A stretch of 64,000 bases of DNA from an uncultured Eubacteriales bacterium (GTDB taxonomy: Bacteria > Acidobacteriota > Aminicenantia > Aminicenantales > Aminicenantaceae): positions 890 to 64,889 of the forward strand of contig CAYFWF010000047.1 of the NCBI GenBank assembly GCA_964346815.1. Direction: 5' to 3'. The notes beneath the pieces were generated by a model. That model was not told where the DNA came from. It searched no databases and saw nothing but the letters and a program-made list of their open reading frames with translations. The stretch's first letter is position 1, and every line of letters starts with the position of its first letter. A program made the position numbers and the translations under genes. This document shows, piece after piece, positions 270 to 17,162 of the stretch.

Positions 270-1337
270 CTATCGGGTTTTCAAGATGCGGATCATTTCT
301 GCGCCGAACTCATCTGGTTCCTCGAAGAAGGGGAAGTGTGCAGAGTTGTCGAACCAAACAATCTCTTTGTAAGGCGCCTCGAGAATGGAGCAGTATTTTT
401 GGACCAGCTCGAACGGTGTCACATAATCATGGCGCCCGCTGAAGAAATAAATGGGGACCTCGAATTCTCTCACATTATCCATCAAGGGGCCCGCGATGAC
501 ATTGTATTGCATGTAGCGGGAGGAAAAGCTCGAACCCTTGGAAATCTTGAGTATATCGAAGAATCCGTACTCGGGAGAAAGGATGCCGGCTTTTATGAAC
601 GGCATGTAGCTTGTCGCTCCAACCAGCTCCCCCCCGAACTTGAATAGCCATTTTTCATGAACAGAGGGGCCGTATATTTTGAGCTCTTCAAGAGCTTCGG
701 GAATATTCCGGCTTTCGGCTGTTTCAAGAATAAAACGGGCTTGTATTTCTGTGGCCTTTTCATCGTCGACGACCTGGCCGATACCTATATAGGCTTCGAC
801 AAGTTCAGGATTCCCGGAGGTGAATAAGGTCCCCAAATAGCTGCCGAAGGAATGCCCCGCAAGGTAGACCTTATCCTGACTATATCGACGGCACAAAATG
901 TGGATGAGCTCCTTTGTATCCGCTAAAAGTTGAGCAACATTTAGAGAAGAAACCGGCAGATCATCGCAGAAAGACTTGCCGGCGCCGCGCCGGTCCCATT
1001 GTACGCAGATGAACTCTTTCTCGAGAGGATGCTGGAAGACATGAGAAAGATACATCATAGGCATTCCGGGACCGCCGTGGAGGAACAAAAGGATCGGATT
1101 GGAAACATCGTCTCCCCGGATCGATATCCACTGCTCATAACCGCTGATCGTTATTTTCTCCAGAGAGGTTATGCTATCGGGCGGAATTTTACCCTCCTGG
1201 TCTCTTATTTTCGGCGTGTGCGGCCTCATCAGATACAGAATTAAAAGGAAAAGGACAATAACAATGCCCACCATCCAGAAAATGATCTTGAAAAATTTGG
1301 GCACTCGCATCTTTTTATGTCTCTTTCCAACTCGCAT
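270..1337 (-). CDS. alpha/beta hydrolase, proline-iminopeptidase-like (S33), N-terminal membrane anchor
   Basis: GxSxG nucleophile elbow (GHSFGSY); HGGPG oxyanion-region motif; hydrophobic N-terminal segment. Confidence 0.75.
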   Translation of the reverse strand: MRVGKRHKKMRVPKFFKIIFWMVGIVIVLFLLILYLMRPHTPKIRDQEGKIPPDSITSLEKITISGYEQWISIRGDDVSNPILLFLHGGPGMPMMYLSHVFQHPLEKEFICVQWDRRGAGKSFCDDLPVSSLNVAQLLADTKELIHILCRRYSQDKVYLAGHSFGSYLGTLFTSGNPELVEAYIGIGQVVDDEKATEIQARFILETAESRNIPEALEELKIYGPSVHEKWLFKFGGELVGATSYMPFIKAGILSPEYGFFDILKISKGSSFSSRYMQYNVIAGPLMDNVREFEVPIYFFSGRHDYVTPFELVQKYCSILEAPYKEIVWFDNSAHFPFFEEPDEFGAEMIRILKTR

Positions 1338-2050: not shown

Positions 2051-2144
2051 ATAAGTGACAAATTCTGTTGACTAGCGCTGAAGCTATGGTATTCCGGTTG
2101 AAAGACAAAAATGGGGTTTCCCAGGGGAAAACAGAGAAATCAGG

Positions 2145-2215
2145 CTGGCTGGGAAGCAGGGATTCGAACCCCGAATCCATGATCCAGAGTCATGTGTCCA
2201 TGTAGACAACAGCTC
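2145..2215 (-). pseudogene. tRNA-Gln(CUG)-like 3' fragment (anticodon arm + T arm + acceptor 3' strand + encoded CCA); no matching 5' acceptor strand
   Basis: Minus-strand read: catga-ctCTGga-tcatg anticodon stem-loop, GGTTCGAATCC T-loop, cttccca-g-CCA 3' end; the 5' strand tgggaag needed to close the acceptor stem is absent. Confidence 0.4.
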
Positions 2216-2331
2216 GTGGGCCAAATACGGGTCAAAAATGACTGAAAATGGCTGAAACTATGGTAATAGGATTGAAAATCCGAAAGACTTAAAAATCATC
2301 AAAAGGCAAAGATTTCCTGGGTTAACAGGAG

Positions 2332-2418
2332 TGCCGGGGGCCGGACTCGAACCGGCACGTAGGTACAACCTACGAGGGATTTTAAGTCCCTTGCGTCTAC
2401 CAATTCCGCCACCCCGGC
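2332..2418 (-). tRNA. tRNA-Leu(UAA), class II with long variable arm
   Basis: Acceptor gccgggg/ccccggc, anticodon loop cuUAAaa, variable arm cgtaggttgtacctacg, perfect T stem gccgg/ccggc with ttcgagt loop. Confidence 0.85.
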
Positions 2419-2621
2419 ACGCTTAGAATCAATGACTGAGATATTTTAGAAGACGCTATTTTTTTCCGACCGTGTCACCATTCTGCTCGTTATGGGCTGA
2501 AATTATATCACAACCTCATCTTCTGAACAATTGCACCCAAAGGATATGTGCTTTCATTTTATCCGATAATTCTTATATAATCAGTAACTATTATTTTCCA
2601 AATAATTAAAAGGTAAATACA

Positions 2622-3884
2622 ATGAAGAACAAAAGATTTATCTGGTTGCTCACGGTATCGATGCTCATTCTTTCCCCAGGGAACTCTCTATTGGCACAAG
2701 AAAAGTATTCACTCGAAAAAATCGTCGATCTCTACAAGCAGAACAACATTGCCCTGAAGATAAATAAGATGGAAATTGACAATGCCGTCTCCCGAAAGAA
2801 AATCGCCGGAGCTTGGGAAAATCCGTCGATTCGATACATTCAAGAAGGGATCAACATAGGGACTCAAGATAATCCTATTAAAGGAAGAGAATTTCAACTT
2901 GCCATGGAACAGAAGATTCCTCTAAGCGGAAGATTAGGACTGCAGTCAAAGCATGCTGAGCAGGGCATTCATATCGCTTCCGAAGAATACCGGCAAGTCT
3001 TTTGGTCTGGATTATCCTATATCAAGACATTGTTCTACGAGATCCAGTTTCTTAACAATACCCAGGACATCCTGGAAAAAATGAGACAGAAGATCGAAGA
3101 GCTCAACACCATCATAATCGAGAATTATGAACGGGGGGAAGCTTCTGGGATCGACACGGCCCGGATAACAATGATTCTCAAAGACATCGATTTAGAAAAG
3201 TATTCTGTCGATACTTCCTTGGATTTAAAAAAAAGAGAGCTCATCACACTGCTCGATCTCTCGAATGAACCAACACAAATCTCCTTTATGGAACCATATT
3301 ATCATTATGTCATTATCGAAGAAAAAAGCGATTTGAGTCAATCGCTGGTCGAAAATAACCCGCAAATTCAAATACTGATCAATTCACAAAAACGCGAGGA
3401 AATCCAGTTGTCTCTCGAAAAAAGGAAAAACTTCCCGGATCTCACAGCAGCCGGAGGATACAAAAAAGAAGATCTCTATGACACATATGCTTTTTCTTTA
3501 TCTCTGAACATTCCTCTATTTAACCAGCACGGAGGAGAAATCCAAGTCGCAAAAAACAATATGAGGATGAACGAACTGCAGCAAAGACTGATCACGAAGG
3601 AATTATTGGAGGCGTTTGAGAGAGAACACGCAAAGCATCTTAAGTCAAAAGAGCTCATTCAGCTGTTCAAAGCTCAATATCTGAGCCAGGCAGATAAACT
3701 GGAAAACTCTACGGTGGCAGCCTACAAAGGAGGCGAGGTCAATATGCTCGTCCTTGTGGACGCCCTCCAATCGGCCCTCAAAACCCGTCTCGAATTCATC
3801 GATCTAATCCTGCAAAACAATGTCGCTGTCTTCAACATCGAAAAAATGATAGGCAGGGAGATCGATTCGGAGAAAATACAATGA
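2622..3884 (+). CDS. outer-membrane efflux protein (TolC/CzcC family) of an RND system
   Basis: Signal peptide; ~420 aa with two coiled repeat halves typical of OEP family; 4-nt overlap with downstream MFP gene. Confidence 0.8.
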   Translation: MKNKRFIWLLTVSMLILSPGNSLLAQEKYSLEKIVDLYKQNNIALKINKMEIDNAVSRKKIAGAWENPSIRYIQEGINIGTQDNPIKGREFQLAMEQKIPLSGRLGLQSKHAEQGIHIASEEYRQVFWSGLSYIKTLFYEIQFLNNTQDILEKMRQKIEELNTIIIENYERGEASGIDTARITMILKDIDLEKYSVDTSLDLKKRELITLLDLSNEPTQISFMEPYYHYVIIEEKSDLSQSLVENNPQIQILINSQKREEIQLSLEKRKNFPDLTAAGGYKKEDLYDTYAFSLSLNIPLFNQHGGEIQVAKNNMRMNELQQRLITKELLEAFEREHAKHLKSKELIQLFKAQYLSQADKLENSTVAAYKGGEVNMLVLVDALQSALKTRLEFIDLILQNNVAVFNIEKMIGREIDSEKIQ

Positions 3885-5449
3885 AAAACAAATTCTTATT
3901 TTTCGGCGCTTTATTGGTCTTTACATACATTACTTCTCTTTGTATAGGGTGTACGGCAAAAAAAGAAAGTGCAGAGCCTGATTATTCTGTCTCATTGACG
4001 GATTGGAGCGATAAGCTCGAAGTGTTTATGGAATACCAAATGCCTACCCCTGGAGAAGAAATAAGTTTTGGCGTTCATGTAACGGATTTGAGTGATTTCA
4101 AACCCATCACAGAGGGAACACTGGCTCTTGTTTTCGTCAACCGCACCTCCGGACAAAAATCCGAAGCTCGAGCGGAAAATCCCATAAGGGACGGGATCTT
4201 CTCACCAAAACATACTTTTACCGAACCGGGAGAATACGACTTAGGCCTGACGCTCGAATCCGAAAAGGTCACGGATACCATGGACCTTGGAACTCTTGAG
4301 GTCTTCGAATCTTTATCGCTGCCTGAAAACGATGAAAAAATGTCCATCGATGAGGTGACTTTCCTCAAAGAGCAGCAGTGGAAAATGGAGTTCGATGTTG
4401 AACCCACAGAAATGCGGACCATCACGAACACCGTATCTGCTCCTGGAAAAATTATTGCTGCCCTCTACAGAATGGCGAAAATAAGTCCCCCACTTGACGG
4501 CAAAATAACATTAGACAAAAACGTCGTTCTGCCAAAACATGGGGATATGGTCAAATCAGGAGACATCCTCGCAATTATCGAACCATCTCTTGCATCATTC
4601 TCGAATTCTGACGGATACCAGATCGATCTGGAAGTGAAAAATTCCGAAACAAAACTCAAACTCGCTCAAAGCGAAGTGGAAAGACTGCGTGCGCTGTATG
4701 AAAAAGAAGCAGTTCCCAAAAAGAGACTGCTGGAAGCAGAAGCCGAACTGAATATCGCAGAGGCAAATTATAATAAAGCCATTAACAAGAAAGCGGCCTT
4801 CCAAAACATAAAGCTCCAGCCAGGTTCTGATTCCCAAAGCCCCTATTATTATGTCCGGGCACCCATCGACGGAAAAATAGTCGACCTGACATACACGCTG
4901 GGGGAACAGATCAAAGCCGGCGACATCATCATGACTGTACTCGACGATTCGAAAGTCTGGCTCGACATTGCCGTCTTCGAAAACGATATCGCCAAAATCA
5001 AAGGCTCATCCGGCGGGTACTTTACGATGACAGATAAAAGCCAGACATTCAATTTAGCCCAATACGATGGAGAATTGTTCTTTTTTGGTACAGTCATAGA
5101 TGAGAGCACAAGAACGATCTCCGTCATTTATGAGTTATCGAATCCGTCCAGCGAATTTTTGGTCGGCTCGTTCATCACCGCGCACCTGAATACGGCCGAG
5201 AACATTCAGACGATAAGCATCCCCAAGTCTGCCATATTTGACTCCGGAGGAAAAAAAGTCTGCTTTGTTCAGATCGGAGGGGAATCCTTTGAAAAGAGGG
5301 TCATTGAGCTGGGAATCGAAGGCCAAGACCATTTTCAAGTCCTCAACGGCCTTCAATCAGGAGAAAAAATCGTTGTTAAGGGAGGGTATGCCATTAAATT
5401 AGCAGCAGAGTCTTCCAGCAAAGATGTGGGAGAAGGACATTATCATTAA
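3881..5449 (+). CDS. RND efflux periplasmic adaptor (HlyD/CusB/CzcB family) with ~150-aa N-terminal extra domain
   Basis: Coiled-coil hairpin (EVERLRALYEKEAV...LLEAEAELNIAEANYNKA) and beta-barrel/MP domain motifs; position between OMP and RND genes. Confidence 0.8.
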   Translation: MKNKFLFFGALLVFTYITSLCIGCTAKKESAEPDYSVSLTDWSDKLEVFMEYQMPTPGEEISFGVHVTDLSDFKPITEGTLALVFVNRTSGQKSEARAENPIRDGIFSPKHTFTEPGEYDLGLTLESEKVTDTMDLGTLEVFESLSLPENDEKMSIDEVTFLKEQQWKMEFDVEPTEMRTITNTVSAPGKIIAALYRMAKISPPLDGKITLDKNVVLPKHGDMVKSGDILAIIEPSLASFSNSDGYQIDLEVKNSETKLKLAQSEVERLRALYEKEAVPKKRLLEAEAELNIAEANYNKAINKKAAFQNIKLQPGSDSQSPYYYVRAPIDGKIVDLTYTLGEQIKAGDIIMTVLDDSKVWLDIAVFENDIAKIKGSSGGYFTMTDKSQTFNLAQYDGELFFFGTVIDESTRTISVIYELSNPSSEFLVGSFITAHLNTAENIQTISIPKSAIFDSGGKKVCFVQIGGESFEKRVIELGIEGQDHFQVLNGLQSGEKIVVKGGYAIKLAAESSSKDVGEGHYH

Positions 5450-5465
5450 ATAACAAAGAGGCAAC

Positions 5466-8400
5466 ATGCTTAGCAAAATCATAAATTGGTCCTTATCGAA
5501 CAGAGCGATCGTCATTTATTTGACAGCATTGCTGTTGATCCTGGGAGTTTACATAACATCCCGGATTCCGGTAGATGTTTTCCCTGATCTGACCGCTCCC
5601 ACGGTCACGATTCTCACCGAAGCTCACGGAATGGCGCCGGAAGAAATTGAAATATTGATCAGCTTTCCGATCGAATCGGCCCTCAACGGGGCGGCAAACG
5701 TAAGAAGGGTACGATCCATATCAGCCATCGGATTATCTATCGTCTGGGTTGAGTTTGATTGGGGAATGGATATATACAATGCGCGCCAGATAGTCAACGA
5801 AAAACTTCAACAGGTCGCAGCCCAACTTCCCCCTGAAAGCGATCCTCCTTTCATGGCACCTATCTCGTCGTTGATGGGAGAGATTTATTTGGTCGGACTC
5901 ACAGGAGAAAAGGCCTCTCTTATGGAGCTGCGATCAATCGCTGATTGGGAGATAAGACGGCGCCTCCTCTCGGTCCGTGGCGTATCACAGGTCATTCCCA
6001 TTGGAGGAGACGTCAGACAATATCACGTCACCGTCGATCCCTTAAAAGCCAAGGAATACGGAATCTCTCTTCAGAAAATCGATGCGGCAATCGAGCAATC
6101 CAACGAAAACTCTGCCAGCGGCTTCACCGTTCAGTCAGGCATGGAATACATCATCAGAGGGCTGGGAAGGATACAGGCTTTGGAGGACCTAAAGAATTCT
6201 GTGGTTACGATAATAGAATCCAAGCCTATTCTCTTGAAACACATAGCCGAAGTATCTATAGGTCCAAAAATTATCCGTGGGACTGCTTCGATCAATAAAC
6301 AACCTTCGGTTATCGTGTCAATCATGAAGCAGCCAGATGTCAACACCCTGGAATTAACCAGAGAGATTGAGGATGTTCTCGCGGACATTCAATCGAAACT
6401 TCCTTCGAACATCCAGATCAACACAGAAATCTTCAAACAGTCTGATTTTATCAATGTCGCCGTCTCCAACGTTTTTCATGCCATAAGAGATGGAGCCATT
6501 TTGGTTGTGATCATTCTTTTCCTATTCCTGCTCAACTTCCGGACCACTTTCATCGCTTCCCTGGCCATTCCTCTCTCATTGCTCATCACGGTAATCGTCA
6601 TGAAGCTGGCAAATATCACGATCAACACCATGACCCTGGGAGGGATGGCTATCGCAGTGGGGATATTGGTTGACGATGCCATAGTCGATATCGAAAACGT
6701 ATTCAGGCGGTTGAAACAGAACATGCACCTACCCGAGGAAAAGAAAAAAAGCATCTTCCAGGTAGTCTACCAAGCTTCAAATGAAATCCGGCACCCGATC
6801 CTGTTCGCCACTCTCATCATCATCCTGGTATTCGCCCCGCTTTTTTTTCTCAGCGGTTTTGAAGGCAGGTTGTTGAGACCTCTTGGATTGACATACATCC
6901 TCTCCATTTTTGCCTCCTTGATCGTGGCCGTGACCGTGACTCCTGTCCTGAGTTATTATCTCCTCCCCAGCCTGAAAATTCTCAAACGGGAAGGCGATAC
7001 GCCAGTCGTTCGATATTTAAAGGCACTTTACAAGCCAATCCTTCAAAAAGTTCTCAAGCACCCAAAATCAGTGCTTATCGTGGCCTTTTCTCTGGTTGTC
7101 GTATCTATCGGTGTCATTCCCTTTTTGGGAAGGAGCTTCCTCCCGAGTTTTAACGAAGGAACTCTCACTTTGAGTGTGAATACAGCTCCTGGAACGTCGC
7201 TTTCCGAATCCGACAAAATCGGCAGCATGGTGGAGACAATCCTTCTCGAGCAGCCAGAGGTTTCATCTACAGCCCGAAGAACAGGTCGAGCCGAACTCGA
7301 CGAACATGCCCAAGAGGTCACAGGAGCGGAAGTGGATGTCAGACTGACCATGAAAGACCGCAGCAAAGCGGATTTTTTGGCTGAGCTGAGGAGACAGCTC
7401 TCTTTGGTTCCAGGCACTTTTATCGGTATCGGGCAACCGATCTCCCATCGCATCGATCATCTTCTTTCCGGCACGAAGTCACAAATCGCAGTAAAGATTT
7501 TCGGGCCAGATATATACATGTTACGGACCTTAGGAAACAGCGTCAAGGACCTCATGGAAGATATCGACGGAGTTGTCGATCTCGCCATCGAACAGCAGCA
7601 TGAAATCCCCCAAATCCAAATAAAGTTCAACCGCATCAATATGGCAAGGTTCGGTTTAAGGACACATGAAGTCGCGGAAAATATCGAGATAGCCTTTCAA
7701 GGAAAAATCGTTTCCCAGATCCTGGAAGGACAGCGCTCATTCGACGTTGTGTTGAGATACGGAGAAGAATTCAGGAAAGATATCGAGTCGATCAAAAGAA
7801 CCCTTATAGATACACCCTTAGGGGAAAAAGTGCCTTTGCTACAAGTGGCTGATATCCGATATGAAAATGGGCCCAACTTCATAAGCCGTGAAGATGTTCA
7901 GAGAAAAATAGTCGTCCACTGCAACGTAGCAGGAAAAGACCTCAAGAGTGTTATAGACGCCATCGAATCGAAAATTGCAGAAAGCATCGTCATCCCTCCG
8001 GATTATTACATCTCATTCGGAGGACAATTCGAAAGCGAAGAAAAAGCTTCGAGGATCATCCTTCTGGTGAGTCTGCTCTCCTTGTTAAGCATTTTCGTTC
8101 TGCTTTCGATCTCCTATCACTCCATCAAATCAGCGATGCTGATCATTATCAACCTACCCCTGGCTCTAATTGGAGGGATTGTAGCTGTGCTGCTTTCAGG
8201 GGGAACTCTGAGTATTCCTTCTCTTGTTGGTTTCGTTACCCTCATCGGGATAGCCACCAGAAACGGAATCATGCTGATCTCGCATTACAACCATCTCATA
8301 GAGGAAGAACAAAAGTCCCTGGACGAAGCGGTTATGCAGGGATCTCTGGAACGGTTGATCCCTATTCTCATGACAGCTCTGACAACGAGTCTCGCTCTTA

Positions 8401-8555
8401 TACCCTTAGCAATTAGAGGAACCGCGCCCGGTAATGAAATTCAATCTCCCATGGCCATTGTCATTTTAGGCGGGCTAGTGACCGCGACATTTCTCAACAT
8501 GATCGTCATGCCGGTTTTGTTTCACAGATATTTCAAAGAGAGGGCTAAGGCATAA
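5466..8555 (+). CDS. heavy-metal-efflux RND transporter (CusA/CzcA family)
   Basis: 1029 aa, 12-TM RND architecture; TM4 motif GILVDDAIVDIENVFRR aligns to the HME-RND A/D-x5-D-x6-E signature and gives the A...D...E pattern seen in CusA. Confidence 0.85.
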   Translation: MLSKIINWSLSNRAIVIYLTALLLILGVYITSRIPVDVFPDLTAPTVTILTEAHGMAPEEIEILISFPIESALNGAANVRRVRSISAIGLSIVWVEFDWGMDIYNARQIVNEKLQQVAAQLPPESDPPFMAPISSLMGEIYLVGLTGEKASLMELRSIADWEIRRRLLSVRGVSQVIPIGGDVRQYHVTVDPLKAKEYGISLQKIDAAIEQSNENSASGFTVQSGMEYIIRGLGRIQALEDLKNSVVTIIESKPILLKHIAEVSIGPKIIRGTASINKQPSVIVSIMKQPDVNTLELTREIEDVLADIQSKLPSNIQINTEIFKQSDFINVAVSNVFHAIRDGAILVVIILFLFLLNFRTTFIASLAIPLSLLITVIVMKLANITINTMTLGGMAIAVGILVDDAIVDIENVFRRLKQNMHLPEEKKKSIFQVVYQASNEIRHPILFATLIIILVFAPLFFLSGFEGRLLRPLGLTYILSIFASLIVAVTVTPVLSYYLLPSLKILKREGDTPVVRYLKALYKPILQKVLKHPKSVLIVAFSLVVVSIGVIPFLGRSFLPSFNEGTLTLSVNTAPGTSLSESDKIGSMVETILLEQPEVSSTARRTGRAELDEHAQEVTGAEVDVRLTMKDRSKADFLAELRRQLSLVPGTFIGIGQPISHRIDHLLSGTKSQIAVKIFGPDIYMLRTLGNSVKDLMEDIDGVVDLAIEQQHEIPQIQIKFNRINMARFGLRTHEVAENIEIAFQGKIVSQILEGQRSFDVVLRYGEEFRKDIESIKRTLIDTPLGEKVPLLQVADIRYENGPNFISREDVQRKIVVHCNVAGKDLKSVIDAIESKIAESIVIPPDYYISFGGQFESEEKASRIILLVSLLSLLSIFVLLSISYHSIKSAMLIIINLPLALIGGIVAVLLSGGTLSIPSLVGFVTLIGIATRNGIMLISHYNHLIEEEQKSLDEAVMQGSLERLIPILMTALTTSLALIPLAIRGTAPGNEIQSPMAIVILGGLVTATFLNMIVMPVLFHRYFKERAKA

Positions 8556-8587
8556 CCTGCAAAATGTATAATAATATGGAGGATAAA

Positions 8588-9421
8588 ATGAGAAAAATTG
8601 GTTTGACTTTAATGGCTATTATTTTTTTGTTTGCTGTTTCTGTCACAATTCTTGCTCATGATTTTTGGCTTGTCCCTAAAAAATTCAGGATTTCCCCAGG
8701 TGATTCGTTGATTATTCTGGCCAATACGGGAATGGATTTCCCGAACAGCCTCAGTGCAGTAACCCCAGATAGAATCGACCAGTTTGTACTTGCAGGGGAA
8801 TCAACAAAAGAGAATATTACAGAATTTACTGTCGAGGGGAACTCTCTTGCTGCGAATTGCTCTTTCGGAAAACCTGGGACTTTTGTCATCGCGGCGGCTT
8901 TGAAGCCCAACGAGATCAAATTGACAGGGAAAGAATTCAACGAGTACCTGCTTGCCGATGGCCTTCCCAACATTTATGAGCTCAGGAAAAAAGAAGGAAT
9001 CCTCCATAAAGACGCTGTCGAGTATTATTCCAAATATCCCAAGACAATTATCCAAGTCGGAAACAAAATTGACGATTCCCCGACAAAACCAATAGGCCTT
9101 CCCATCGAAATCGTCCCAAAGGTCAATCCTTATAAATTAAACAAAGGAGATGAGCTGGAAGTTTTGGTGCTTTTCCAAGGGAAGCCGCTTCCGAATGCGG
9201 AAATTGCGTGGAGTTACCCAGGACGGGGGGAAGAGTTTGCCGGCTCAGCAAAAACAGATGAATCAGGACAGGCATCTATTCCTTTGATAAAAGCCGGGCC
9301 ATATGTCATCAGGCTCACTCATATGGAATGGGTCAAAAAACCGACACGTGAATGGGAGAGCTATTGGACTTCTCTGACCTTCGAGGTTATATCTAACAAT
9401 AATTCTCAATCCCAAAACTGA
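8588..9421 (+). CDS. periplasmic protein, possibly DUF4198-like metal-binding protein
   Basis: Signal peptide followed by HDFWLVP start of mature protein; RBS GGAGG before ATG at 8588; all-beta composition; follows RND gene in the same orientation. Confidence 0.45.
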   Translation: MRKIGLTLMAIIFLFAVSVTILAHDFWLVPKKFRISPGDSLIILANTGMDFPNSLSAVTPDRIDQFVLAGESTKENITEFTVEGNSLAANCSFGKPGTFVIAAALKPNEIKLTGKEFNEYLLADGLPNIYELRKKEGILHKDAVEYYSKYPKTIIQVGNKIDDSPTKPIGLPIEIVPKVNPYKLNKGDELEVLVLFQGKPLPNAEIAWSYPGRGEEFAGSAKTDESGQASIPLIKAGPYVIRLTHMEWVKKPTREWESYWTSLTFEVISNNNSQSQN

Positions 9422-9461
9422 GACCAAAATTTGAGGATCGTTTTAATTCCAGAAAATAAAT

Positions 9462-10658
9462 TCACTCCTGGTGGCTATTCTCAGGAATTCGTTTCAGAAG
9501 ATCATCCAAAAGTTTTTTAGCTTCTTCATTATCCGGTTCCAACTCCAGTGCTTTTTTTATACTCTGAATACTCAGATCAACCTTGTTCAACTGAACATAT
9601 GCTTTACCTAAGTTAACGAAGCCATTTGCAGACTTTGAGTAAATGGATACAAAATATGTATAAAGTTCAACTGATTGTTGAGATTCATTGTTTCCCAAAT
9701 ACCTTTGGCCGACGGTGTTAAGGATGTCAGGAGGGGGAAGGACTTTGAATCCGAACCGTTTCGTTAAGGTCTCATAGTGCTTTTTTATGAAATCCAAGGT
9801 TCCACTCCTGAAGAATTCTAGCTCTGGAATCCACCCTGAAAAGAGATTCATCAATCCTTGATAAAATCCCTTTATGGGAACGTGTCCCTCACCCTCAAAT
9901 ATGTCAGAGTCCCACTTAAGTCCCAGATTTTCCTTATTATGGAGCAGGGCGTCGAATTTTCTTATTCCTTCATGAAGTTCTTCAGGTTCATTTCCTCCTC
10001 CTGAAAAGTACAGGTATTTATGGGACAGCAATTCGCCAGGAATTTCATCCAATCGATCGGATAAAAATTGTAGTCGCTCTTCGTTTTGAAGGACCGGACT
10101 GGATGCGATAAAGGCGGAAAACATAGCGGGATCCTTGAGGAGAATATAGGCTGTAAAAAAGCCAGCCAAGGAATGTCCAACCAGAATCCTGTACTCATGG
10201 ATCCGGTATTTTTTCTCGAGGTGGACAAACAATTCCTTTTTGAGAAAACAAATGAACTTTTCAGAATCCTTGATTGCCTGTGGATCGCTTGTCCTGCATG
10301 GATCCAGATCCCTCCTTCTGTCTGTATTGGGAATCCCCACAACGATCATTTGGGGGAGATAGTTGGGGGATATCATGTCCACAATACTCACACAGTACCG
10401 AAATGCCCAATCGCCATCGAGGACAAGCATAAGAGGATAGGACCCGTCTGAGCTTTCAAAATTATCCGGAAGATAGATCTCCAACGGCCGCCATTCACCT
10501 AAGATCTTAGAGAAAATTTGAGTTCTGTGTCCAATGATAATATTCTCGTCAATCTCTTTTTTTTGCGTATTTTGCATGGATTGAGCTGGAAAAATTTGTA
10601 TCATACAAAGTACAAAAAAAAGAAAAACAAGACACATTTTTGAGTTCATAATTATCAC
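9462..10658 (-). CDS. secreted esterase (esterase-D/enterochelin-esterase-like alpha/beta hydrolase) with C-terminal TPR
   Basis: Signal peptide; GHSLAG nucleophile elbow; C-terminal TPR-like segment (LGKAYVQLNKVDLSIQSIKKALELEPDNEEA). Confidence 0.65.
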   Translation of the reverse strand: MIIMNSKMCLVFLFFVLCMIQIFPAQSMQNTQKKEIDENIIIGHRTQIFSKILGEWRPLEIYLPDNFESSDGSYPLMLVLDGDWAFRYCVSIVDMISPNYLPQMIVVGIPNTDRRRDLDPCRTSDPQAIKDSEKFICFLKKELFVHLEKKYRIHEYRILVGHSLAGFFTAYILLKDPAMFSAFIASSPVLQNEERLQFLSDRLDEIPGELLSHKYLYFSGGGNEPEELHEGIRKFDALLHNKENLGLKWDSDIFEGEGHVPIKGFYQGLMNLFSGWIPELEFFRSGTLDFIKKHYETLTKRFGFKVLPPPDILNTVGQRYLGNNESQQSVELYTYFVSIYSKSANGFVNLGKAYVQLNKVDLSIQSIKKALELEPDNEEAKKLLDDLLKRIPENSHQE

Positions 10659-10920
10659 TCCACTTTCTAATTTTGACCAATATTATTTATTTAAATATTA
10701 TCACCGTCTCCCAGAAATCGCCAATTTCTCCTTTAAAGAAGTAAGAATATATTCATTTTGACTCGATAATCTCCCTGTGTTACATACTACAAGAATAGCA
10801 ACTATGCAGATGTTCATGTTCTATGTGAAATCTTGGAAACAAACAGGATAGATACTTATAGGAAAAATAATTGTTGAGCGTAATATTTAAAAATTAAACT
10901 CAAAAGTAGGGAAAGGGCAA

Positions 10921-11541
10921 ATGAAAAGCAAAGGCATATCAATTTTAACAGGGCTGATTTTTATTCTCATTTTTAGTCTAAACGGACAAGAAATGCCGCA
11001 GAACTGGAAAGCCAAAACACTTTGGGAGAGCATTGAAAAGATTCAGAGAGTAATAGTTGGCGATATCGATCCAAATCATAAAGGAGACGAAATCATTTCA
11101 GTAACTCAGAAGGGTGAAGTCGTCTATACGCTCGAATCCCCTGATGGATGGGTAAACGATATTCTCTGGGTTGACACGGCCTCTCTAACAGGAGCAGCAA
11201 TAGGTGAATTGGATACTGGTCACCCAGGCAGAGAGGTTATCGTGGGAGGCGCGAGGGGAGTTTCAGAGGAAATATACAGGGACAAAGACGGCCTGCGAGG
11301 TGTGGCAGTTGCAGATATCCAGCCAGATATCCCGGGTAATGAAGTGGCTATCTTCGGCTATGCGAAAGATATCATTATGATTTATCCAAAAAACGGCGAG
11401 TGGGTGACAGAGACTCTGTGGACTGATTCAGACCGTGCGCACAGCCTTTCCTGTGGAAACTTTTCACCCTCTACATCCTGGCAGGAATGCGTGGTAGGAG
11501 GCTATTCAAAAAAGGTCACTGGAATCTTCTACAAAAAATGA
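10921..11541 (+). CDS. secreted FG-GAP/VCBS-like repeat protein
   Basis: Signal peptide; repeated D-x-D/N-x-D-G motifs (GDIDPNHKGDEI, GELDTGHPGREV, ADIQPDIPGNEV). Confidence 0.45.
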   Translation: MKSKGISILTGLIFILIFSLNGQEMPQNWKAKTLWESIEKIQRVIVGDIDPNHKGDEIISVTQKGEVVYTLESPDGWVNDILWVDTASLTGAAIGELDTGHPGREVIVGGARGVSEEIYRDKDGLRGVAVADIQPDIPGNEVAIFGYAKDIIMIYPKNGEWVTETLWTDSDRAHSLSCGNFSPSTSWQECVVGGYSKKVTGIFYKK

Positions 11542-13115
11542 GAATCCCCTCTTCTCTTAAAGGCGAAGTGAAGAAAGTAATCTTAGGACTGTTTTTTATC
11601 AATCTGATGATAGCGAGTTTTGCCCTAGAGAGCAGAGGAGCTGAGGTTAGAAAAACTCCGGCCATAAAGATCTCCTCGCCTGTTAAAATCGATGGGAATT
11701 TGAGCGATGAGGCGTGGGAAAATATAGATCCTATAAGAGACTTCATCCAATTTTCCCCGTTCCATGGCGAACCATCCCCTCTGAAAACAGAAGTTAGGAT
11801 TGCCTATGACGACGAATCGATATACTGTGGCTTTTACTGCATTGACCTTGATCCTGAGAAGATCTCCGCCAGCATCACCAAAAGAGATGCGGAATTCGAA
11901 CAGGATGATACAGTTATCGTTATGCTCGATACTTTCAACGACAATCGCACATGCTATCTATTTGCAACCAATCTTCTGGGGACACAATTCGATGGCAAGG
12001 TCGCGGATAACGGACGCTCAGAGGACGATAGCTGGGATGAATCTTGGCAGTCAGCAGCTCAGCGAGTGGAGGATGGATGGATTGCAGAAATCGCTATACC
12101 CTTTTCCATTCTCAAGTTTAAAAGCGGAGAAGGCAGGATATGGGGGCTTAATATCGGAAGAAACTATCCCCGAACTCTCGAGACAAGCTTTTGGGTCGGC
12201 CCTCTCGAAAAGGAGAATCGTGTATCCCAGTTTGGAAAATTGGTGGACCTTGATCTTCAGCCTAAAGGAAAAAGACTGACAATCATGCCCTATGGTCTCT
12301 CTCAAGTTCAGGAAGACAAGAAATGGGAAGGAAAGGCAGGAATTGATTTTCGTTATCCATTCACCTCAAACCTAGGAGCGGATATCACCATCAATCCTGA
12401 CTTTGCCACTGTAGAAGCCGATGTAGAACAGATCAATCTTACGCGTTTTGAACTCCGCATCTCCGAAAAGCGGCCTTTTTTTCTGGAAGGATCTGAATAT
12501 TTTAGAACTCGTATCAATCAATTCTACTCACGCCGCATCGGTGACATACCGTGGGGGGCAAAACTGACAGGCAAAATTGGCGGCTGGAATATAGCCCTCA
12601 TCAACGCTCAGTCAGATCCTGCTTCAACTGGAGCAATTCCCGAAAGCGAGGAAAAAAAAGCACTCTACAGCGTATTCCGCACCCAGAGGGATATATTTGG
12701 AAACTCTAATATCGGTCTCATCTTTGCTAACAGAGCATACAAAGGAGAAAACAGCGGCTCAATAGGAATAGATACGACTCTCTTTTTTACAAGAACTTTA
12801 GGAATGACTGCACAATTTGTTAAGAGTCATGGTCCCGTTAAAGACGGTACCTGGGCCTGGTTTATTCGACCCGCATTTGACAGCGCAACAGGCCATTTCC
12901 ATATTCGGTACTCCCACTGGGGCGAAGGATTGATGGAGAATATGAACTCAATTGCTTATATCCGAGATGACGACCGAAAGGAAATAGACTCCAATCTCTC
13001 TAAAACTTTCTGGATAAGAAAAGGTTGGTTTGAGCGCATCCAATTTACGACAAACTACAATCGATACTGGAGCCAGGAAGGAGTCCTGAGGAGCTGGGAT
13101 TCGAGTTCACGATAA
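11538..13115 (+). CDS. secreted DOMON/CBM9-like domain + large beta-barrel protein (DUF5916-like); probably truncated by an in-frame stop
   Basis: ATGA overlap start; signal peptide; N-terminal motif KIDGNLSDEAWENIDPIRDF; ORF ends at TAA 13113-13115 but the same frame continues with plausible beta-strand sequence. Confidence 0.5.
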   Translation: MRIPSSLKGEVKKVILGLFFINLMIASFALESRGAEVRKTPAIKISSPVKIDGNLSDEAWENIDPIRDFIQFSPFHGEPSPLKTEVRIAYDDESIYCGFYCIDLDPEKISASITKRDAEFEQDDTVIVMLDTFNDNRTCYLFATNLLGTQFDGKVADNGRSEDDSWDESWQSAAQRVEDGWIAEIAIPFSILKFKSGEGRIWGLNIGRNYPRTLETSFWVGPLEKENRVSQFGKLVDLDLQPKGKRLTIMPYGLSQVQEDKKWEGKAGIDFRYPFTSNLGADITINPDFATVEADVEQINLTRFELRISEKRPFFLEGSEYFRTRINQFYSRRIGDIPWGAKLTGKIGGWNIALINAQSDPASTGAIPESEEKKALYSVFRTQRDIFGNSNIGLIFANRAYKGENSGSIGIDTTLFFTRTLGMTAQFVKSHGPVKDGTWAWFIRPAFDSATGHFHIRYSHWGEGLMENMNSIAYIRDDDRKEIDSNLSKTFWIRKGWFERIQFTTNYNRYWSQEGVLRSWDSSSR

Positions 13116-13530
13116 TCCCCCACACTGACAAACAAGTGGGAAATCAGGTTGAATCACGACGAGGATTTCAAGCGCTATGAAAAAGATTTCCGCAACCGTG
13201 AAACGAGCTTGAGTATCGGCTACGACACCAGAACGGGAAGGTCTTTTTCCAAACCAATTCTGTTATTGACAAAAAAATGTTCAGGTTGTCTTCGTATGGC
13301 GATTTCTCCCGCCTTTTGGCTCTCTTCAGATTGCTTATCAAAGAGGCACATCAGGGTTCGGCACAAAATCAGATCAAGGGCATACATTATTTACTAAGCT
13401 ATCCTGGGTATTCTAAAGACCGAAGAAAAATACTGGCTTTTTTTCCATTTAAACTTTACATGCATAAAAAGTCTTATACCTTACATCGAAATACAAAAAT
13501 CCTTAAACGCTCCATAGGAACAAGGTAAAT
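13116..13530 (+). pseudogene. decayed 3' portion of the preceding gene (same frame after TAA, then frameshifted)
   Basis: ORF 13149..13397 is in the same frame as 11538..13115 (NHDEDFKRYEKDFRNRETSLSIGYDTRTGRSF...); no RBS or start of its own. Confidence 0.35.
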
Positions 13531-13774
13531 GTCCTATTTCCGCTCTCATTTTTTTCCGTCAAGTCTACTCACCAGCAGAAGTCACGGGATTAAATCCTAT
13601 GACTCCTAGTTTAATTCCAGGGACTTCTCAGGGACAAAAACATGACAAAATAGACCAAAACTGATTGTTTACCCTTGTTTTCGTCTATTTGCCGTGGTGA
13701 CATTAAATATTATGTTTTCAAAGGATTAGTGCCGAGGTCCGGACTCGAACTGGTACGCAGGCTCACTTACGAGC

Positions 13775-13787
13775 GATTTTAAGTCCC
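13775..13787. repeat. 13-bp direct repeat GATTTTAAGTCCC (copy 1) = anticodon stem-loop of tRNA-Leu
   Basis: Exact 13-nt match with 13965-13977; also present in intact tRNA at 2378-2390. Confidence 0.9.
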
Positions 13788-13964
13788 CTGTTCCATCAAA
13801 AATCCACCGTGTCCTTCTTGTGTCCCTCTTCTGCACAGGAGTATGCAGACTATACAGATAATTGGGAAAATACACATCTCCCTATTTTTCCAAAATCTGC
13901 TGATTTTTCAGTAAGTTACTGGCTTTTAATGCTTTACAGAAAAACTCGAATTCTCTTTCCTGAT

Positions 13965-13977
13965 GATTTTAAGTCCC
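13965..13977. repeat. 13-bp direct repeat GATTTTAAGTCCC (copy 2)
   Basis: Exact match; flanks the 177-bp insert. Confidence 0.9.
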
Positions 13978-14257
13978 TTGCGTCTACCAATTCCGCCACC
14001 CCGGCATACCAAGTGAGGGGATTATATCATAATCCTAAAACCCCAACAAGCTCTGGGAATTTCCATGCAGTCCACTCCTTACAAGGATTGCTTCAATCCA
14101 TATATCGACCCGCGTTGACATCGATGACTTCTTTCCATTCTTCGCCCTCTATGGACAGCAAAAACGAATGAGGCCCCGAGGTTCCCGCAGTATGATCCGA
14201 GTTGACATGGACCCAGACAGTGATAGAATAAGTTTAGAAGTGGGAGTGTTTGAAACG

Positions 14258-15421
14258 ATGCGCACAATTCTTTTTACCGGAAAAGGAGGGGTGGGGAAAA
14301 CCACACTCTCTGCAGCTACGGCTCTGCAATGCGCAAACAAGGGATACAGAACCCTTGTTATTTCTACCGATGCCGCCCATTCTCTCTCCGACTCTTTCGA
14401 AACTCAACTCTCCAGCCAGCCCAAAAGAATTGCGGCCAACCTTTTCGGTCAGGAAATAAACGCCCTGGAGGAAATAGAGAAAAATTGGGGGGATATCAAA
14501 AGCTATTTGAGCGCCCTCTTCTCTTCTCAGGGAATAGACGAGATAGAAGCCGAAGAGATGAGTGTTTTCCCGGGCATGGAAGAGCTGTTCAGCCTGATGG
14601 AAATCCGCAACTATAACAGATCTTCCGAATATGATGTCATTATCGTAGACTGTGCTCCCACAGGGGATACCTTGAGGCTCCTCAGCGCTCCGGAAATCAC
14701 CAACTGGTACCTCAAACACATCTTTCCCATCCAGAGAACCGCGGCCAGGGCCGTAAGGCCTGTGGCTAACCGGGTCCTTCCCTTTCCTTTCCCTGAAGAT
14801 AAAGTCTTCGGCGCCATGAAGAAGCTGACTACCCAGCTGGCCGAGATGAAAGAAATCCTTTCCGATTCCCAAAAAACGACCGTCCGCCTTGTGGTCAATC
14901 CAGAAAAGATGGTCATCAAAGAGGCGCAGCGGGCATTTACATTCTTCAGTCTCTTCGGCTATGCCGTCGACCTTATCATCGTAAACAGGGTGATTCCTCC
15001 GGATATACAGGATGCGTACTTTGATAAATGGAAGGTCATTCAATCTGGATACCAAAGGAAGATCAAGGAGTGTTTTTCACCCATCCCCATATTTTCATTG
15101 GAGCTTTTAGAAGAGGAAATCATTGGTACAGAGCTGCTCTCTCGGATAGCGAAAAAAATATACGGCAGAAAAGATCCAGCCCGGATTTTTCTCTCTCAAA
15201 AGCCTGTCGCTATTCAGAAGGCAGACGGCGGATTCGATATGCTCCTGAATCTGCCTTTTCAGAAAAAGGCCGATATAGACCTCTACAAGAACGGCGATGA
15301 GCTGATCATTAAAGCGGGCAAGTTCAAAAGGAACATCATCCTTCCGCCGACGTTGATCCATTATTCGATCAAAAGCGCGAAGTTCGAAGAAGAAAAGCTT
15401 AGAATAAGCTTCCGCCAATAG
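14258..15421 (+). CDS. ArsA/GET3-family ATPase with C-terminal HSP20-like domain
   Basis: Deviant Walker A GKGGVGKTT; ArsA signature DCAPTGDTLRLL; C-terminal alpha-crystallin-like segment (DLYKNGDELIIKAGKFKRNIILP...KLRISF); GGAG RBS before ATG at 14258. Confidence 0.8.
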   Translation: MRTILFTGKGGVGKTTLSAATALQCANKGYRTLVISTDAAHSLSDSFETQLSSQPKRIAANLFGQEINALEEIEKNWGDIKSYLSALFSSQGIDEIEAEEMSVFPGMEELFSLMEIRNYNRSSEYDVIIVDCAPTGDTLRLLSAPEITNWYLKHIFPIQRTAARAVRPVANRVLPFPFPEDKVFGAMKKLTTQLAEMKEILSDSQKTTVRLVVNPEKMVIKEAQRAFTFFSLFGYAVDLIIVNRVIPPDIQDAYFDKWKVIQSGYQRKIKECFSPIPIFSLELLEEEIIGTELLSRIAKKIYGRKDPARIFLSQKPVAIQKADGGFDMLLNLPFQKKADIDLYKNGDELIIKAGKFKRNIILPPTLIHYSIKSAKFEEEKLRISFRQ

Positions 15422-16786: not shown

Positions 16787-17162
16787 CTATGACAATACCT
16801 CCCTCCATTCATTTTAAGAGAACCTTAATTCTTTACATCATCAACGCGTAAATCAAGCCTCACCATTTCCACAGCAGTTTGGATAACTTCCAACCAAGCT
16901 AGTCAGGGACCACCCAGTACGAACGGGCATGATGAGCGGAGTGTGTCGATATCATTAAAAGAGATTGCTTCACCATCAGAGGTGGTTCGCAATGACAACG
17001 GGCTTCGCTGGGGAAAAAAGCCGGGGACGAATCAGCTTGCCTGACTGTTCCCGCAGAGTGGTTTTTGAGAGGGTTTCATGAAGGGGCTTGATAATGTTGC
17101 TCGTTTGAGCAAAAATGAACAGAGATCGGGTGTATGAGTATTCAAGAAAGGAGACCTCGGGC

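Follow-up and report, generated by a model that had tools for sequence, protein, structure and literature searches.

The anticodon stem-loop of tRNA genes is a classical attachment core for integrative islands. The anticodon loop of tRNA-Leu(UAA) is, in addition, the classical site of a group I intron, found in cyanobacteria and plastids (Rfam RF00028). Cassette systems served by an integrase acting in trans are also known, among them integron cassettes, with attC, and IMEX elements, which use host XerCD. In the Islander survey (Hudson, Lau & Williams 2015, PMC4383910, where Williams 2002 is cited), 2083 of 3919 islands use an anticodon-centred attP, and in 159 of the 3919 mapped tDNA islands the fragment left behind is a 5' one, which necessarily lies upstream of the full tDNA. 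Scars of this kind are common, and tDNA fragments at island junctions are already known.

The DNA considered here, the window, is the whole of a 64,000-nucleotide stretch from a Candidatus Aminicenantes bacterium; the ArsA-like ATPase gene (14168-15421) that adjoins the locus of interest has its best relatives in Candidatus Aminicenantes MAGs. The window contains an intact tRNA-Leu(UAA) gene and, 11.6 kb away, a copy which is split in the anticodon loop by 177 bp of other DNA. The reading favoured here, given a probability of roughly 60%, is that the split copy is a dead tRNA-Leu(UAA) gene at its original position, broken by island recombination in the anticodon loop, with a solo island end left between att cores. 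The features concerned are as follows.

2142..2331, minus strand: D block, the downstream flank of the intact gene, identified by homology to the relative L082
2149-2216, within the D block: tRNA-Gln(CUG)-like pseudo-tRNA, scoring 27.5 bits, below the 29-bit threshold
2332..2418, minus strand: intact tRNA-Leu(UAA) (ARAGORN; Rfam 60 bits); 2378-2419 is the second copy of the 42-bp repeat
2420..13964, no strand: segment between the 42-bp repeats (repeat period 11,587 bp)
13611..13700, minus strand: H block, a conserved 3' flank of tRNA-Leu with a hairpin and a T-rich tail, homologous to L083, L087 and L097
13730..13774, minus strand: decayed tRNA-Leu 3' part, recognised from sequence, repeat families and an HMM match
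13775..13787, minus strand: core copy 2, GGGACTTAAAATC, a 13-mer match
13788..13805, minus strand: 18-nt spacer GGATTTTTGATGGAACAG leading from the E-block to core copy 2 (alignment A3)
13806..13964, minus strand: E-block, which is the part of the 177-bp insert that is conserved and non-coding; its last bases are ...GACACGGT
13965..13977, minus strand: core copy 1, GGGACTTAAAATC, tRNA positions 28-40
13965..14005, minus strand: orphan tRNA-Leu(UAA) 5' fragment (acceptor 5' strand, D arm, anticodon 5' stem, loop and 2 nt)
14021..14029, minus strand: promoter-like TGATATAAT (extended -10), 15 nt upstream of the tRNA 5' end

The minus-strand sequence of 14005-13965, GCCGGGGTGGCGGAATTGGTAGACGCAAGGGACTTAAAATC, coincides base for base with positions 1-41 of the intact gene (2332-2418); it also matches positions 1-43 of a tRNA-Leu HMM (E 2.8e-11). 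An earlier reading of the sequence, referred to here as the original prediction, had reported an exact 42-nt copy of the 5' half; the copy is indeed exact, over 41 nt of tRNA, or over 42 nt once base 14006 is added, which gives a repeat (13965-14006 = 2378-2419) with a period of 11,587 bp. The presence of GGGACTTAAAATC on both sides of the 177-bp insert (13964-13788) was likewise confirmed, at 13977-13965 and 13787-13775, and a third copy lies within the intact gene at 2390-2378. Three copies in 64 kb compare with 0.17 expected, and three or more were seen in 0 of 100 shuffles. As a repeat the 13-mer does flank the insert, but the large event at this locus is marked by the 42-bp 5' half and not by the 13-mer alone. 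The 41 nt of the 5' half are 100% identical in L002, L003, L004, L007 and L082-L088, and for this reason a recent event cannot be read from the match between the window's two 5' halves.

The 3' half has fared differently. The sequence 13787-13730 is ~84-85% identical to intact tRNA-Leu 3' halves, and the decayed part matches positions 25-87 of the HMM (E 2.6e-11). The changed variable arm and two T-stem mismatches that had been remarked upon earlier are present, the former having 3 pairs, down from 6, and they are accompanied by a G.G in the anticodon stem and a G.U in the acceptor stem; the damage consists of base pairs lost without compensation. Downstream lies the H block, whose 14-bp hairpin is formed by AAATAGACGAAAAC and GTTTTGGTCTATTT (13690-13677 and 13661-13648), and which is homologous to the sequence immediately 3' of the intact tRNA-Leu in L083, L087 and L097. 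Since the dead 3' half carries H, it brought an authentic tRNA-Leu flank along and has drifted since. At the other end of the split copy, TGATATAAT is the predicted native tRNA-Leu promoter. It was not picked up by a simple sigma-70 scan and is present at equal distance upstream of the intact tRNA-Leu in L082 and L086.

In many relatives an intact tRNA-Leu(UAA) gene is found upstream of ArsA on the same strand, and rightward of the locus the order ArsA-AF_1253-CDP-OH transferase-TonB receptor-GlmS is kept; the leftward order is not. The closest sampled relative, L082 (ArsA 91% identical; syntenic coding DNA 83.3% identical to the window), has a single, uninterrupted tRNA-Leu gene at the locus, which is the empty site that the original prediction had proposed to look for. 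The upstream flank of that gene (L082 3826-3904) matches window 14006-14084, the flank of the split copy, including TGATATAAT, and L082 3549-3825, comprising the 3' half and 190 nt downstream, matches window 2142-2418 with 96.4% identity. In L082 the D block is contiguous with the upstream flank of the split copy. As these two flanks lie 11.6 kb apart here, the window has, relative to L082, an additional 11,587 bp set between two direct copies of the 5' half, and this segment (2420..13964) is absent from the L082 locus.

The split copy, which adjoins the ArsA-like gene and retains its own promoter, is at the original chromosomal position of the gene, and its earlier description as a paralog has to be given up. 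It is the intact gene 11.6 kb away that is the displaced or reconstituted one. This is the sole tRNA-Leu(UAA) called in the window by ARAGORN and Rfam, it is 98.9% identical to the genes of L082 and L084, and it is predicted to be the working gene. The D block downstream of it reaches 96% identity to L082, where the two genomes as a whole share 83%, a feature for which the history proposed below does not account.

The 11.6-kb segment holds the E-block, core 2, the dead 3' half, H and a region X upstream of the intact tRNA. Its cargo consists of a broken CBM9/DUF5916 gene, an esterase-TPR gene, a DUF4198 gene and an RND efflux operon (AcrB, HlyD, OEP). No integrase or other recombinase was detected in the segment by Pfam scans of the large and several small ORFs in 270-21841. 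Called genes cover 2622-13115, and with no unassigned stretch longer than ~620 nt there is no room for an integrase gene. The cargo was also considered as the ancestral neighbour of the tRNA. This was rejected, as tblastn found none of it near tRNA-Leu/ArsA in ~35 related loci except for a DUF4198 gene in L004, which is joined to the tRNA there across an NN scaffold gap. Orthologs of the CBM9 gene on L296 (95%) and L297 (79%) have no tRNA, E or H sequence adjacent to them, or their contigs end too early.

The insert itself belongs to a family. Matches to the E-block were obtained with nhmmer in L087/L088 and L282-L295, the homolog in L087/L088 having an E of 4.5e-20 despite an ArsA identity to the window of only 72%. 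Further copies were found by using a spurious plus-strand ORF over the insert as a protein query, with one alignment iteration. This yielded 22 homologs at E <= 3.5e-7, on at least 22 other metagenomic contigs. DNA was recovered for seven of these homologs which, together with the window and L087, makes nine independent DNA copies at distinct loci, the eight outside the window being L087, L282, L284, L285, L289, L290, L292 and L294. In the nine copies (alignments A3 and A4) the family is ~180 nt long and ends in ...GGGGACACAAAAATGACACGGT. Pairwise identity averages ~79% and column identity, in A4, averages 84%; the flanks cannot be aligned. In the spacer GGATTTTTGATGGAACAG the first ~10 nt are common to L284/L289 and the remainder is unique. 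Each locus, over up to ~21 kb, has a single copy, as does the 64-kb window.

Differences per site at codon positions 1, 2 and 3 are 0.246, 0.186 and 0.214, without codon periodicity, and the starts and stops of the open frame differ among copies. Given the lack of a third-position excess and the varying starts and stops, the E-block is taken to be non-coding. It matches no Rfam family. As a check for viral origin, a 22-base E-block pattern was searched for in IMG/VR, with zero matches, and a viral search with a 15-mer returned chance matches only, none of them confirmed by nhmmer. The insert family is undescribed conserved non-coding DNA.

What adjoins the E-block is informative. A tRNA-derived 5' neighbour (in the tRNA sense) is present in eight of the nine DNA copies, and all seven full-length DNA E-blocks start with tRNA-Leu anticodon-arm sequence. 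The full tRNA-Leu 5' half and promoter are joined to the E-block at AAAATC|ATC in the window and, at the DNA level, in L282/L283, where the same-nucleotide junction after the full 5' half reads AAAATC|ATC(A/C)GG; in P0001, P0002 and P0004 translation (...DDFKSLASTNSATPA) places the full 5' half against the E-block at this nucleotide as well. A decayed 5' half precedes the E-block in L087 and, by translation, in P0007, and ~21 nt of tRNA only, AGACGCAAGGGACTTAAAATC, are found in L284 and L285 and approximately in L289 and L290. In L292 a whole tRNA-Arg(UCG) is followed by the 3' ~100 nt of the E-block only, and in L294 an E-block reduced to its 3' ~100 nt stands behind unrelated sequence. The suggestion that other copies of the insert be sought has thus uncovered a recurrent island-end sequence, fused elsewhere to tRNA-Leu 5' halves at the same nucleotide.

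On the 3' side the commonest neighbour is the stop codon of a MacB_PCD/FtsX permease gene in a PadR-MacB module. The E-block abuts such a stop codon in L087, L285, L292 and L294, and the same adjacency is seen in at least 9 of the 22 translations, which start MN[DE]GF.TVS. A second core or tRNA 3' half after the E-block was found in none of the eight other loci with readable DNA; the 3' junction in the window is thus unique, which argues both against a conserved intron and against a target-site-duplicating transposon. Precomputed Pfam labels and a few hmmscans recorded no integrase or recombinase near E-block copies except in L290, where the E-block adjoins a fragment of an IS91-type transposase (Zn_Tnp_IS91). 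In related bacteria the E-block is the island-terminal DNA of PadR-MacB/FtsX modules which lack an integrase.

A counterpart of the E-block, the F block (~200 nt), lies on the opposite side of the core in L284, giving the order F-core-E, and is also found 3' of MacB genes in L285 and L082. In the E-block of the window a tandem GGACAC-N6-GGACAC is present at 13809-13825, and the GGACAC tandem motif recurs in E and F blocks.

An interruption in the anticodon loop of tRNA-Leu(UAA) calls to mind the group I intron of the same tRNA species, which classically occupies this position. A working intron-containing gene, with a group I intron or one of a new kind, would have its tRNA restored by excision of 190 nt. 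The two ends of the insert are able to pair with each other, the region as a whole folds better than shuffles (z = -3.85), and the two halves, when joined in silico, are recognised by ARAGORN, though only in a lowered-threshold run. Against this, the joined product has four uncompensated structural defects, including the G.G in the anticodon stem, the two T-stem mismatches and the collapsed variable arm, so that the exons do not have intact stems. For the insert by itself, folding is not better than in shuffled sequences (z = -1.3). The split locus is called neither by standard ARAGORN nor by Rfam at the gathering threshold, and in intron mode ARAGORN returns only a distorted, implausible Leu(AAG) with a 180-nt intron. 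With Rfam at E <= 10 over 13500-14250 there is no match to Intron_gpI or to any other intron or ribozyme family, the sole match at the locus being a 15.6-bit tRNA resting on the 5' half. The insert therefore differs from the known intron in having no ribozyme core (P3-P9), and it differs also in that its splice-site nucleotides are wrong, its 3' exon is degenerate and not conserved, and the insert is found in many places away from a complete tRNA.

Comparison between genomes points the same way. The 3' junction and 3' exon are missing after the E-block in L282, where the ~780 nt of downstream sequence at hand contain no 3' half, and in the remaining seven DNA loci. Relatives have intact tRNA-Leu genes at the orthologous locus, uninterrupted in the closest of them, so the interrupted gene is not conserved, and the window has an intact tRNA-Leu(UAA) of its own 11.6 kb away. 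The minimum free energy fold of the region contains no bulge-helix-bulge motif, and the organism is a bacterium with outer-membrane machinery. The intron reading is extremely improbable and close to refuted already. The original prediction had called a group I intron unlikely and had proposed a check with tRNA-finders; neither ARAGORN nor Rfam calls an intact intron-containing tRNA with canonical intron features, and the defects of the joined halves agree with that judgement.

A different account would make the E-block a small, non-autonomous (MITE-like) transposable element, the 13-bp repeat its target-site duplication, with no island involved. The perfect 13-bp direct repeat that bounds the window copy would fit this, as would a short, non-coding sequence present in many contigs and the IS91-type transposase fragment beside the copy in L290. 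It is nevertheless quite unlikely. In eight of eight other DNA loci no second core follows the E-block, so that these copies are not bounded by duplicated targets of their own, and terminal inverted repeats were not found, the ends matching at 7 of 10 positions at best. All seven full-length DNA copies have tRNA-Leu-derived sequence at their 5' boundary, where varied targets would be expected of a transposon, the 3' boundary is mostly a MacB stop codon, and copies do not multiply within a locus (one in up to ~21 kb, one in the 64-kb window). The original prediction had offered an att core or a target-site duplication as the source of the repeat. The former half stands in so far as the locus is a scar of recombination in the anticodon stem-loop, the att core itself being something that we infer, since no tyrosine recombinase was found; a simple small-transposon target-site duplication is not supported, given the lack of a second core in the eight other loci and of terminal inverted repeats.

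It is also rather improbable, though not without indications, that the fusion of tRNA 5' half and E-block, or the E-block alone, is a selected functional non-coding element for which the scar anatomy is only the origin. The tRNA promoter could drive such an element as a small RNA, or it could serve as a site at which proteins bind in regulation or recombination. The E-block is conserved between unalignable flanks and is better conserved than the adjoining remnants of the 5' half, which have decayed in L087, L284, L285 and L290; this hints at a function beyond that of a mere scar. Both the window and L282 have an intact promoter upstream of the 5' half, some hairpins persist and contain G-U pairs that only the tRNA-sense strand can form, and the GGACAC tandem is shared by E and F blocks. 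However, neither strand gained covariation support in RNAalifold (the terms are +0.7 and +1.2 kcal/mol, and many pairs are broken), there is the unremarkable fold of the insert alone and the lack of an Rfam family, and recent spread could equally explain the conservation. Whatever its role, the native promoter probably transcribes the 5' half into the E-block, and nothing points to splicing.

That the arrangement is an artefact, the contig having been mis-joined at the 42-bp repeat, is very improbable. The short-read Logan contig L001, on which this ArsA gene also lies, ends within the repeated 5' half, so the repeat does break some assemblies. Yet 42 bp is less than a read length, the local order 5' half-E-core-3' half-H covers only ~400 bp, and the junction of 5' half and E-block occurs independently in other samples (L282/L283, P0001, P0002).

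The favoured history, that of an old gene broken by an island, may be set out in three steps. First, an element bearing an E-block would recombine into the anticodon loop, thereby duplicating the 13-nt core. Second, the body of the element would be deleted, leaving 5' half-core-E-core-3' half-H, with a solo end between cores. Third, circular or transferred DNA with the dead gene and ~11 kb of cargo would recombine with an intact tRNA-Leu via the 5' half or core; alternatively, two gene copies may have existed, and L082 may have lost the interval by deletion between the repeats. Either way, the outcome would be a working gene made up of 5' half, 3' half and D flank at 2332-2418, with the old promoter and 5' half left in front of the E-block. 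The recombinase, for which there is no local gene, may act in trans or may have been lost, or short-homology recombination may have done the work. Plain integration at the core predicts an attL of 5' half-core-E and an attR of P arm-core-3' half; as the attR is not seen, extra steps of deletion or recombination are assumed. A model in which the tRNA core recombined with an inverted island core to give an inversion was considered and rejected for the window, core 2 and the 3' half being in direct orientation. An element that inserted here without rebuilding the tRNA would do harm if there were no second copy of the gene, a consideration that counts against the favoured history.

The locus L087 preserves what appears to be a fuller version of the arrangement. 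Its order is intact tRNA-Leu, H, decayed 5' half, E-block, an 8.6-kb island and a displaced full 3' half at 721-774. The island contains two PadR-MacB modules, genes for an aldo-keto reductase/Fe-S protein and an AlkD-like gene, and has no integrase. The split gene of the window is in effect the L087 arrangement minus the island body.

Set beside the islands of the Islander survey, the window has much in common with them. A full tDNA and its cognate fragment lie in the same orientation on the same replicon (2332-2418 and 13965-14005, both on the minus strand), the 5' fragment being upstream of the full gene in the tRNA sense, as in the minority class of islands that displace a 5' piece of the tDNA. 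The repeat ends in the anticodon stem-loop, the segment of 11.6 kb is within the 2-200 kb range, and a close relative, L082, has the uninterrupted site. The tDNA is predicted to be restored by attP, the gene at 2332-2418 scoring 60 bits with the tRNA model. Cargo is variable, as at a hot spot: the flanks differ from one relative to another, and at a distance of 115 nt there is a further tRNA-like site, which bears an island in L082. Unlike these islands, the window has no integrase gene and would fail the integrase filter of Islander. Its cargo consists of ordinary housekeeping-like genes, one of them broken, and it has an extra 3' fragment (13730-13787), which lies 177 bp from the 5' fragment and is misplaced relative to the full gene, belonging instead to an older, local split of the old gene by a solo island end. 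In the latter respect the locus resembles solo remnants such as solo LTRs and degraded tandem tDNA islands, in which a short conserved end lies between duplicated copies of the target and the body is gone. It differs from them in that the cores are 13 nt and the remnant has one arm only.

Annotators should treat the locus as a tRNA pseudogene and island junction and should not enter it as an intron-containing tRNA. What is new is the E/F-block family, conserved non-coding DNA of an uncultured phylum which is tied to integrase-less PadR-MacB modules, lying at the ends of these transporter modules and at tRNA-derived junctions. PadR-MacB/FtsX modules without a recombinase of their own, ending in a conserved non-coding block, resemble the cassettes of integrase-in-trans systems, as do the E and F blocks in being present at recombination junctions and in arrays. 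The likeness goes no further than resemblance, as no integron integrase, attI, attC structure or dif site was identified here, and the arrays could stem from ordinary duplication, recombination being putative. It is conceivable, although unlikely, that E-block, F-block and tRNA-Leu core together make up an attP-like site by which the integrase-less modules are moved and multiplied, with a recombinase encoded elsewhere in the genome and tRNA-Leu(UAA), the tRNA-Gln-like site and tRNA-Arg as targets. If so, this would be a cassette system that docks at the anticodon-arm or 3'-end sequences of tRNAs, and it could account for the large arrays of PadR-MacB paralogs in Aminicenantes and Acidobacteria. 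If the E/F blocks are recombination sites they would show how PadR-MacB modules spread; otherwise they are well-preserved scars. The family, whose functional role is putative, would merit a genome-wide look.

The locus also pinpoints a hot spot, tRNA-Leu and the tRNA-Gln-like site, where close Aminicenantes relatives differ in gene content. The tRNA-Gln(CUG)-like pseudo-tRNA lies 115 nt downstream of the intact tRNA-Leu, and its flank in the window is 2014-2173. The F end of L284 borders on a 3' fragment of tRNA-Gln and on a flank with homology (E 3.4e-24) to this stretch of the window; the E-block of L284 is the end of an island sitting in the tRNA-Gln-like site. In L082 a 3.3-kb PadR-MacB island sits at the pseudo-tRNA, with a repeat of the pseudo-tRNA 3' end as its boundary, and in L121 a further orphan tRNA-Leu 5' half and core are followed by foreign DNA. 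Together with those of L087, these tRNA fragments indicate that the neighbourhood is a recombination hot spot.

Downstream of the intact tRNA-Leu(UAA) of the window, at a distance of 115 nt, lies a second tRNA-like sequence.

2149-2216, minus strand, flank extending to 2014: tRNA-Gln(CUG)-like pseudo-tRNA (window; Rfam tRNA, 27.5 bits)

Its score falls slightly below the threshold of the Rfam tRNA model, and its acceptor stem is broken. In L082, the closest sampled relative, the counterpart of this pseudo-tRNA contains a 3.3-kb island carrying PadR-MacB, an integrase-less transporter module, and the limits of the island are formed by a repeat of the pseudo-tRNA 3' end. At the related locus L284, a 3' fragment of the tRNA-Gln-like element, together with its flank, adjoins an array consisting of a conserved F-block, the 13-nt tRNA-Leu anticodon stem-loop sequence (the core) and the E-block, the conserved non-coding part of the insert in the split tRNA-Leu. 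The pseudo-tRNA looks like a second attachment site, which is empty in the window.

The F-block, about 200 nt long, is likewise conserved and non-coding, the second such element besides the E-block, and occurs at the following positions.

3809-4015, minus strand: F-block (L284)
13183-13400 and 16905-17100, minus strand: F-blocks (L285)
288-491, plus strand: F-block (L082)

It is bounded on one side by a sequence resembling the tRNA-Leu core and on the other by a fragment resembling the 3' end of tRNA-Gln. Within it lies GGTCACAAAATGGACAC, which is similar to GGGGACACAAAAATGACAC, the E-block tail.

The same island end is also found behind a different tRNA, as in L292/L293 a gap of about 25 nt separates a complete tRNA-Arg(UCG) from an E-block of which only the 3' part (about 100 nt) is present, and next comes a MacB stop codon. 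Core-like 13-mers are present 3' of further MacB genes, in the orientation of the core that adjoins the E-block.

10143-10218, minus strand: complete tRNA-Arg(UCG) (L292/L293)
6295-6307, minus strand: core-like 13-mer, two mismatches, just after a further MacB stop codon (L087)
13170-13182, minus strand: core-like 13-mer, two mismatches, just after a further MacB stop codon (L285)

Since by our own estimate about 0.4 such matches with two mismatches are expected per locus by chance, these 13-mers are no more than suggestive.

The block that spans tRNA-Leu and, downstream of it, the flank with the pseudo-tRNA (window 2142-2418; L082 3549-3825) is 96.4% identical between the two genomes; identity is 83.3% in the syntenic coding DNA and just 75-80% or so in the upstream flank. 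The block may have been exchanged recently, or else it may be strongly constrained.

A tRNA-Leu 5' half also occurs alone in L121, an Aminicenantes contig whose ArsA-like ATPase gene has 68% identity.

755-796, minus strand: orphan tRNA-Leu(UAA) 5' half with core (L121)

It ends ...AAAATCC, after which the DNA is unrelated.

Among the cargo between the 42-bp repeats of the window, one gene appears to be broken.

10921-13400, plus strand: CBM9/DUF5916 gene, apparently broken (window)

Homologs have a single frame of 685-695 aa, whereas here there are two overlapping ORFs of 206 and 542 aa, and relative to the 95% identical L296 about 200 nt are missing close to the 3' end.

In L004, a DUF4198 gene only seems to stand directly next to tRNA-Leu: in this MAG an 'NN' scaffold join (9754-9755) lies between the two and truncates the DUF4198 gene, and the neighbourhood is not to be taken as real. 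The short-read Logan contig ERR2564001_274840, whose ArsA gene is identical, ends at window position 13977, inside the repeated 5' half, which is typical of an assembly graph broken by the 42-bp repeat.
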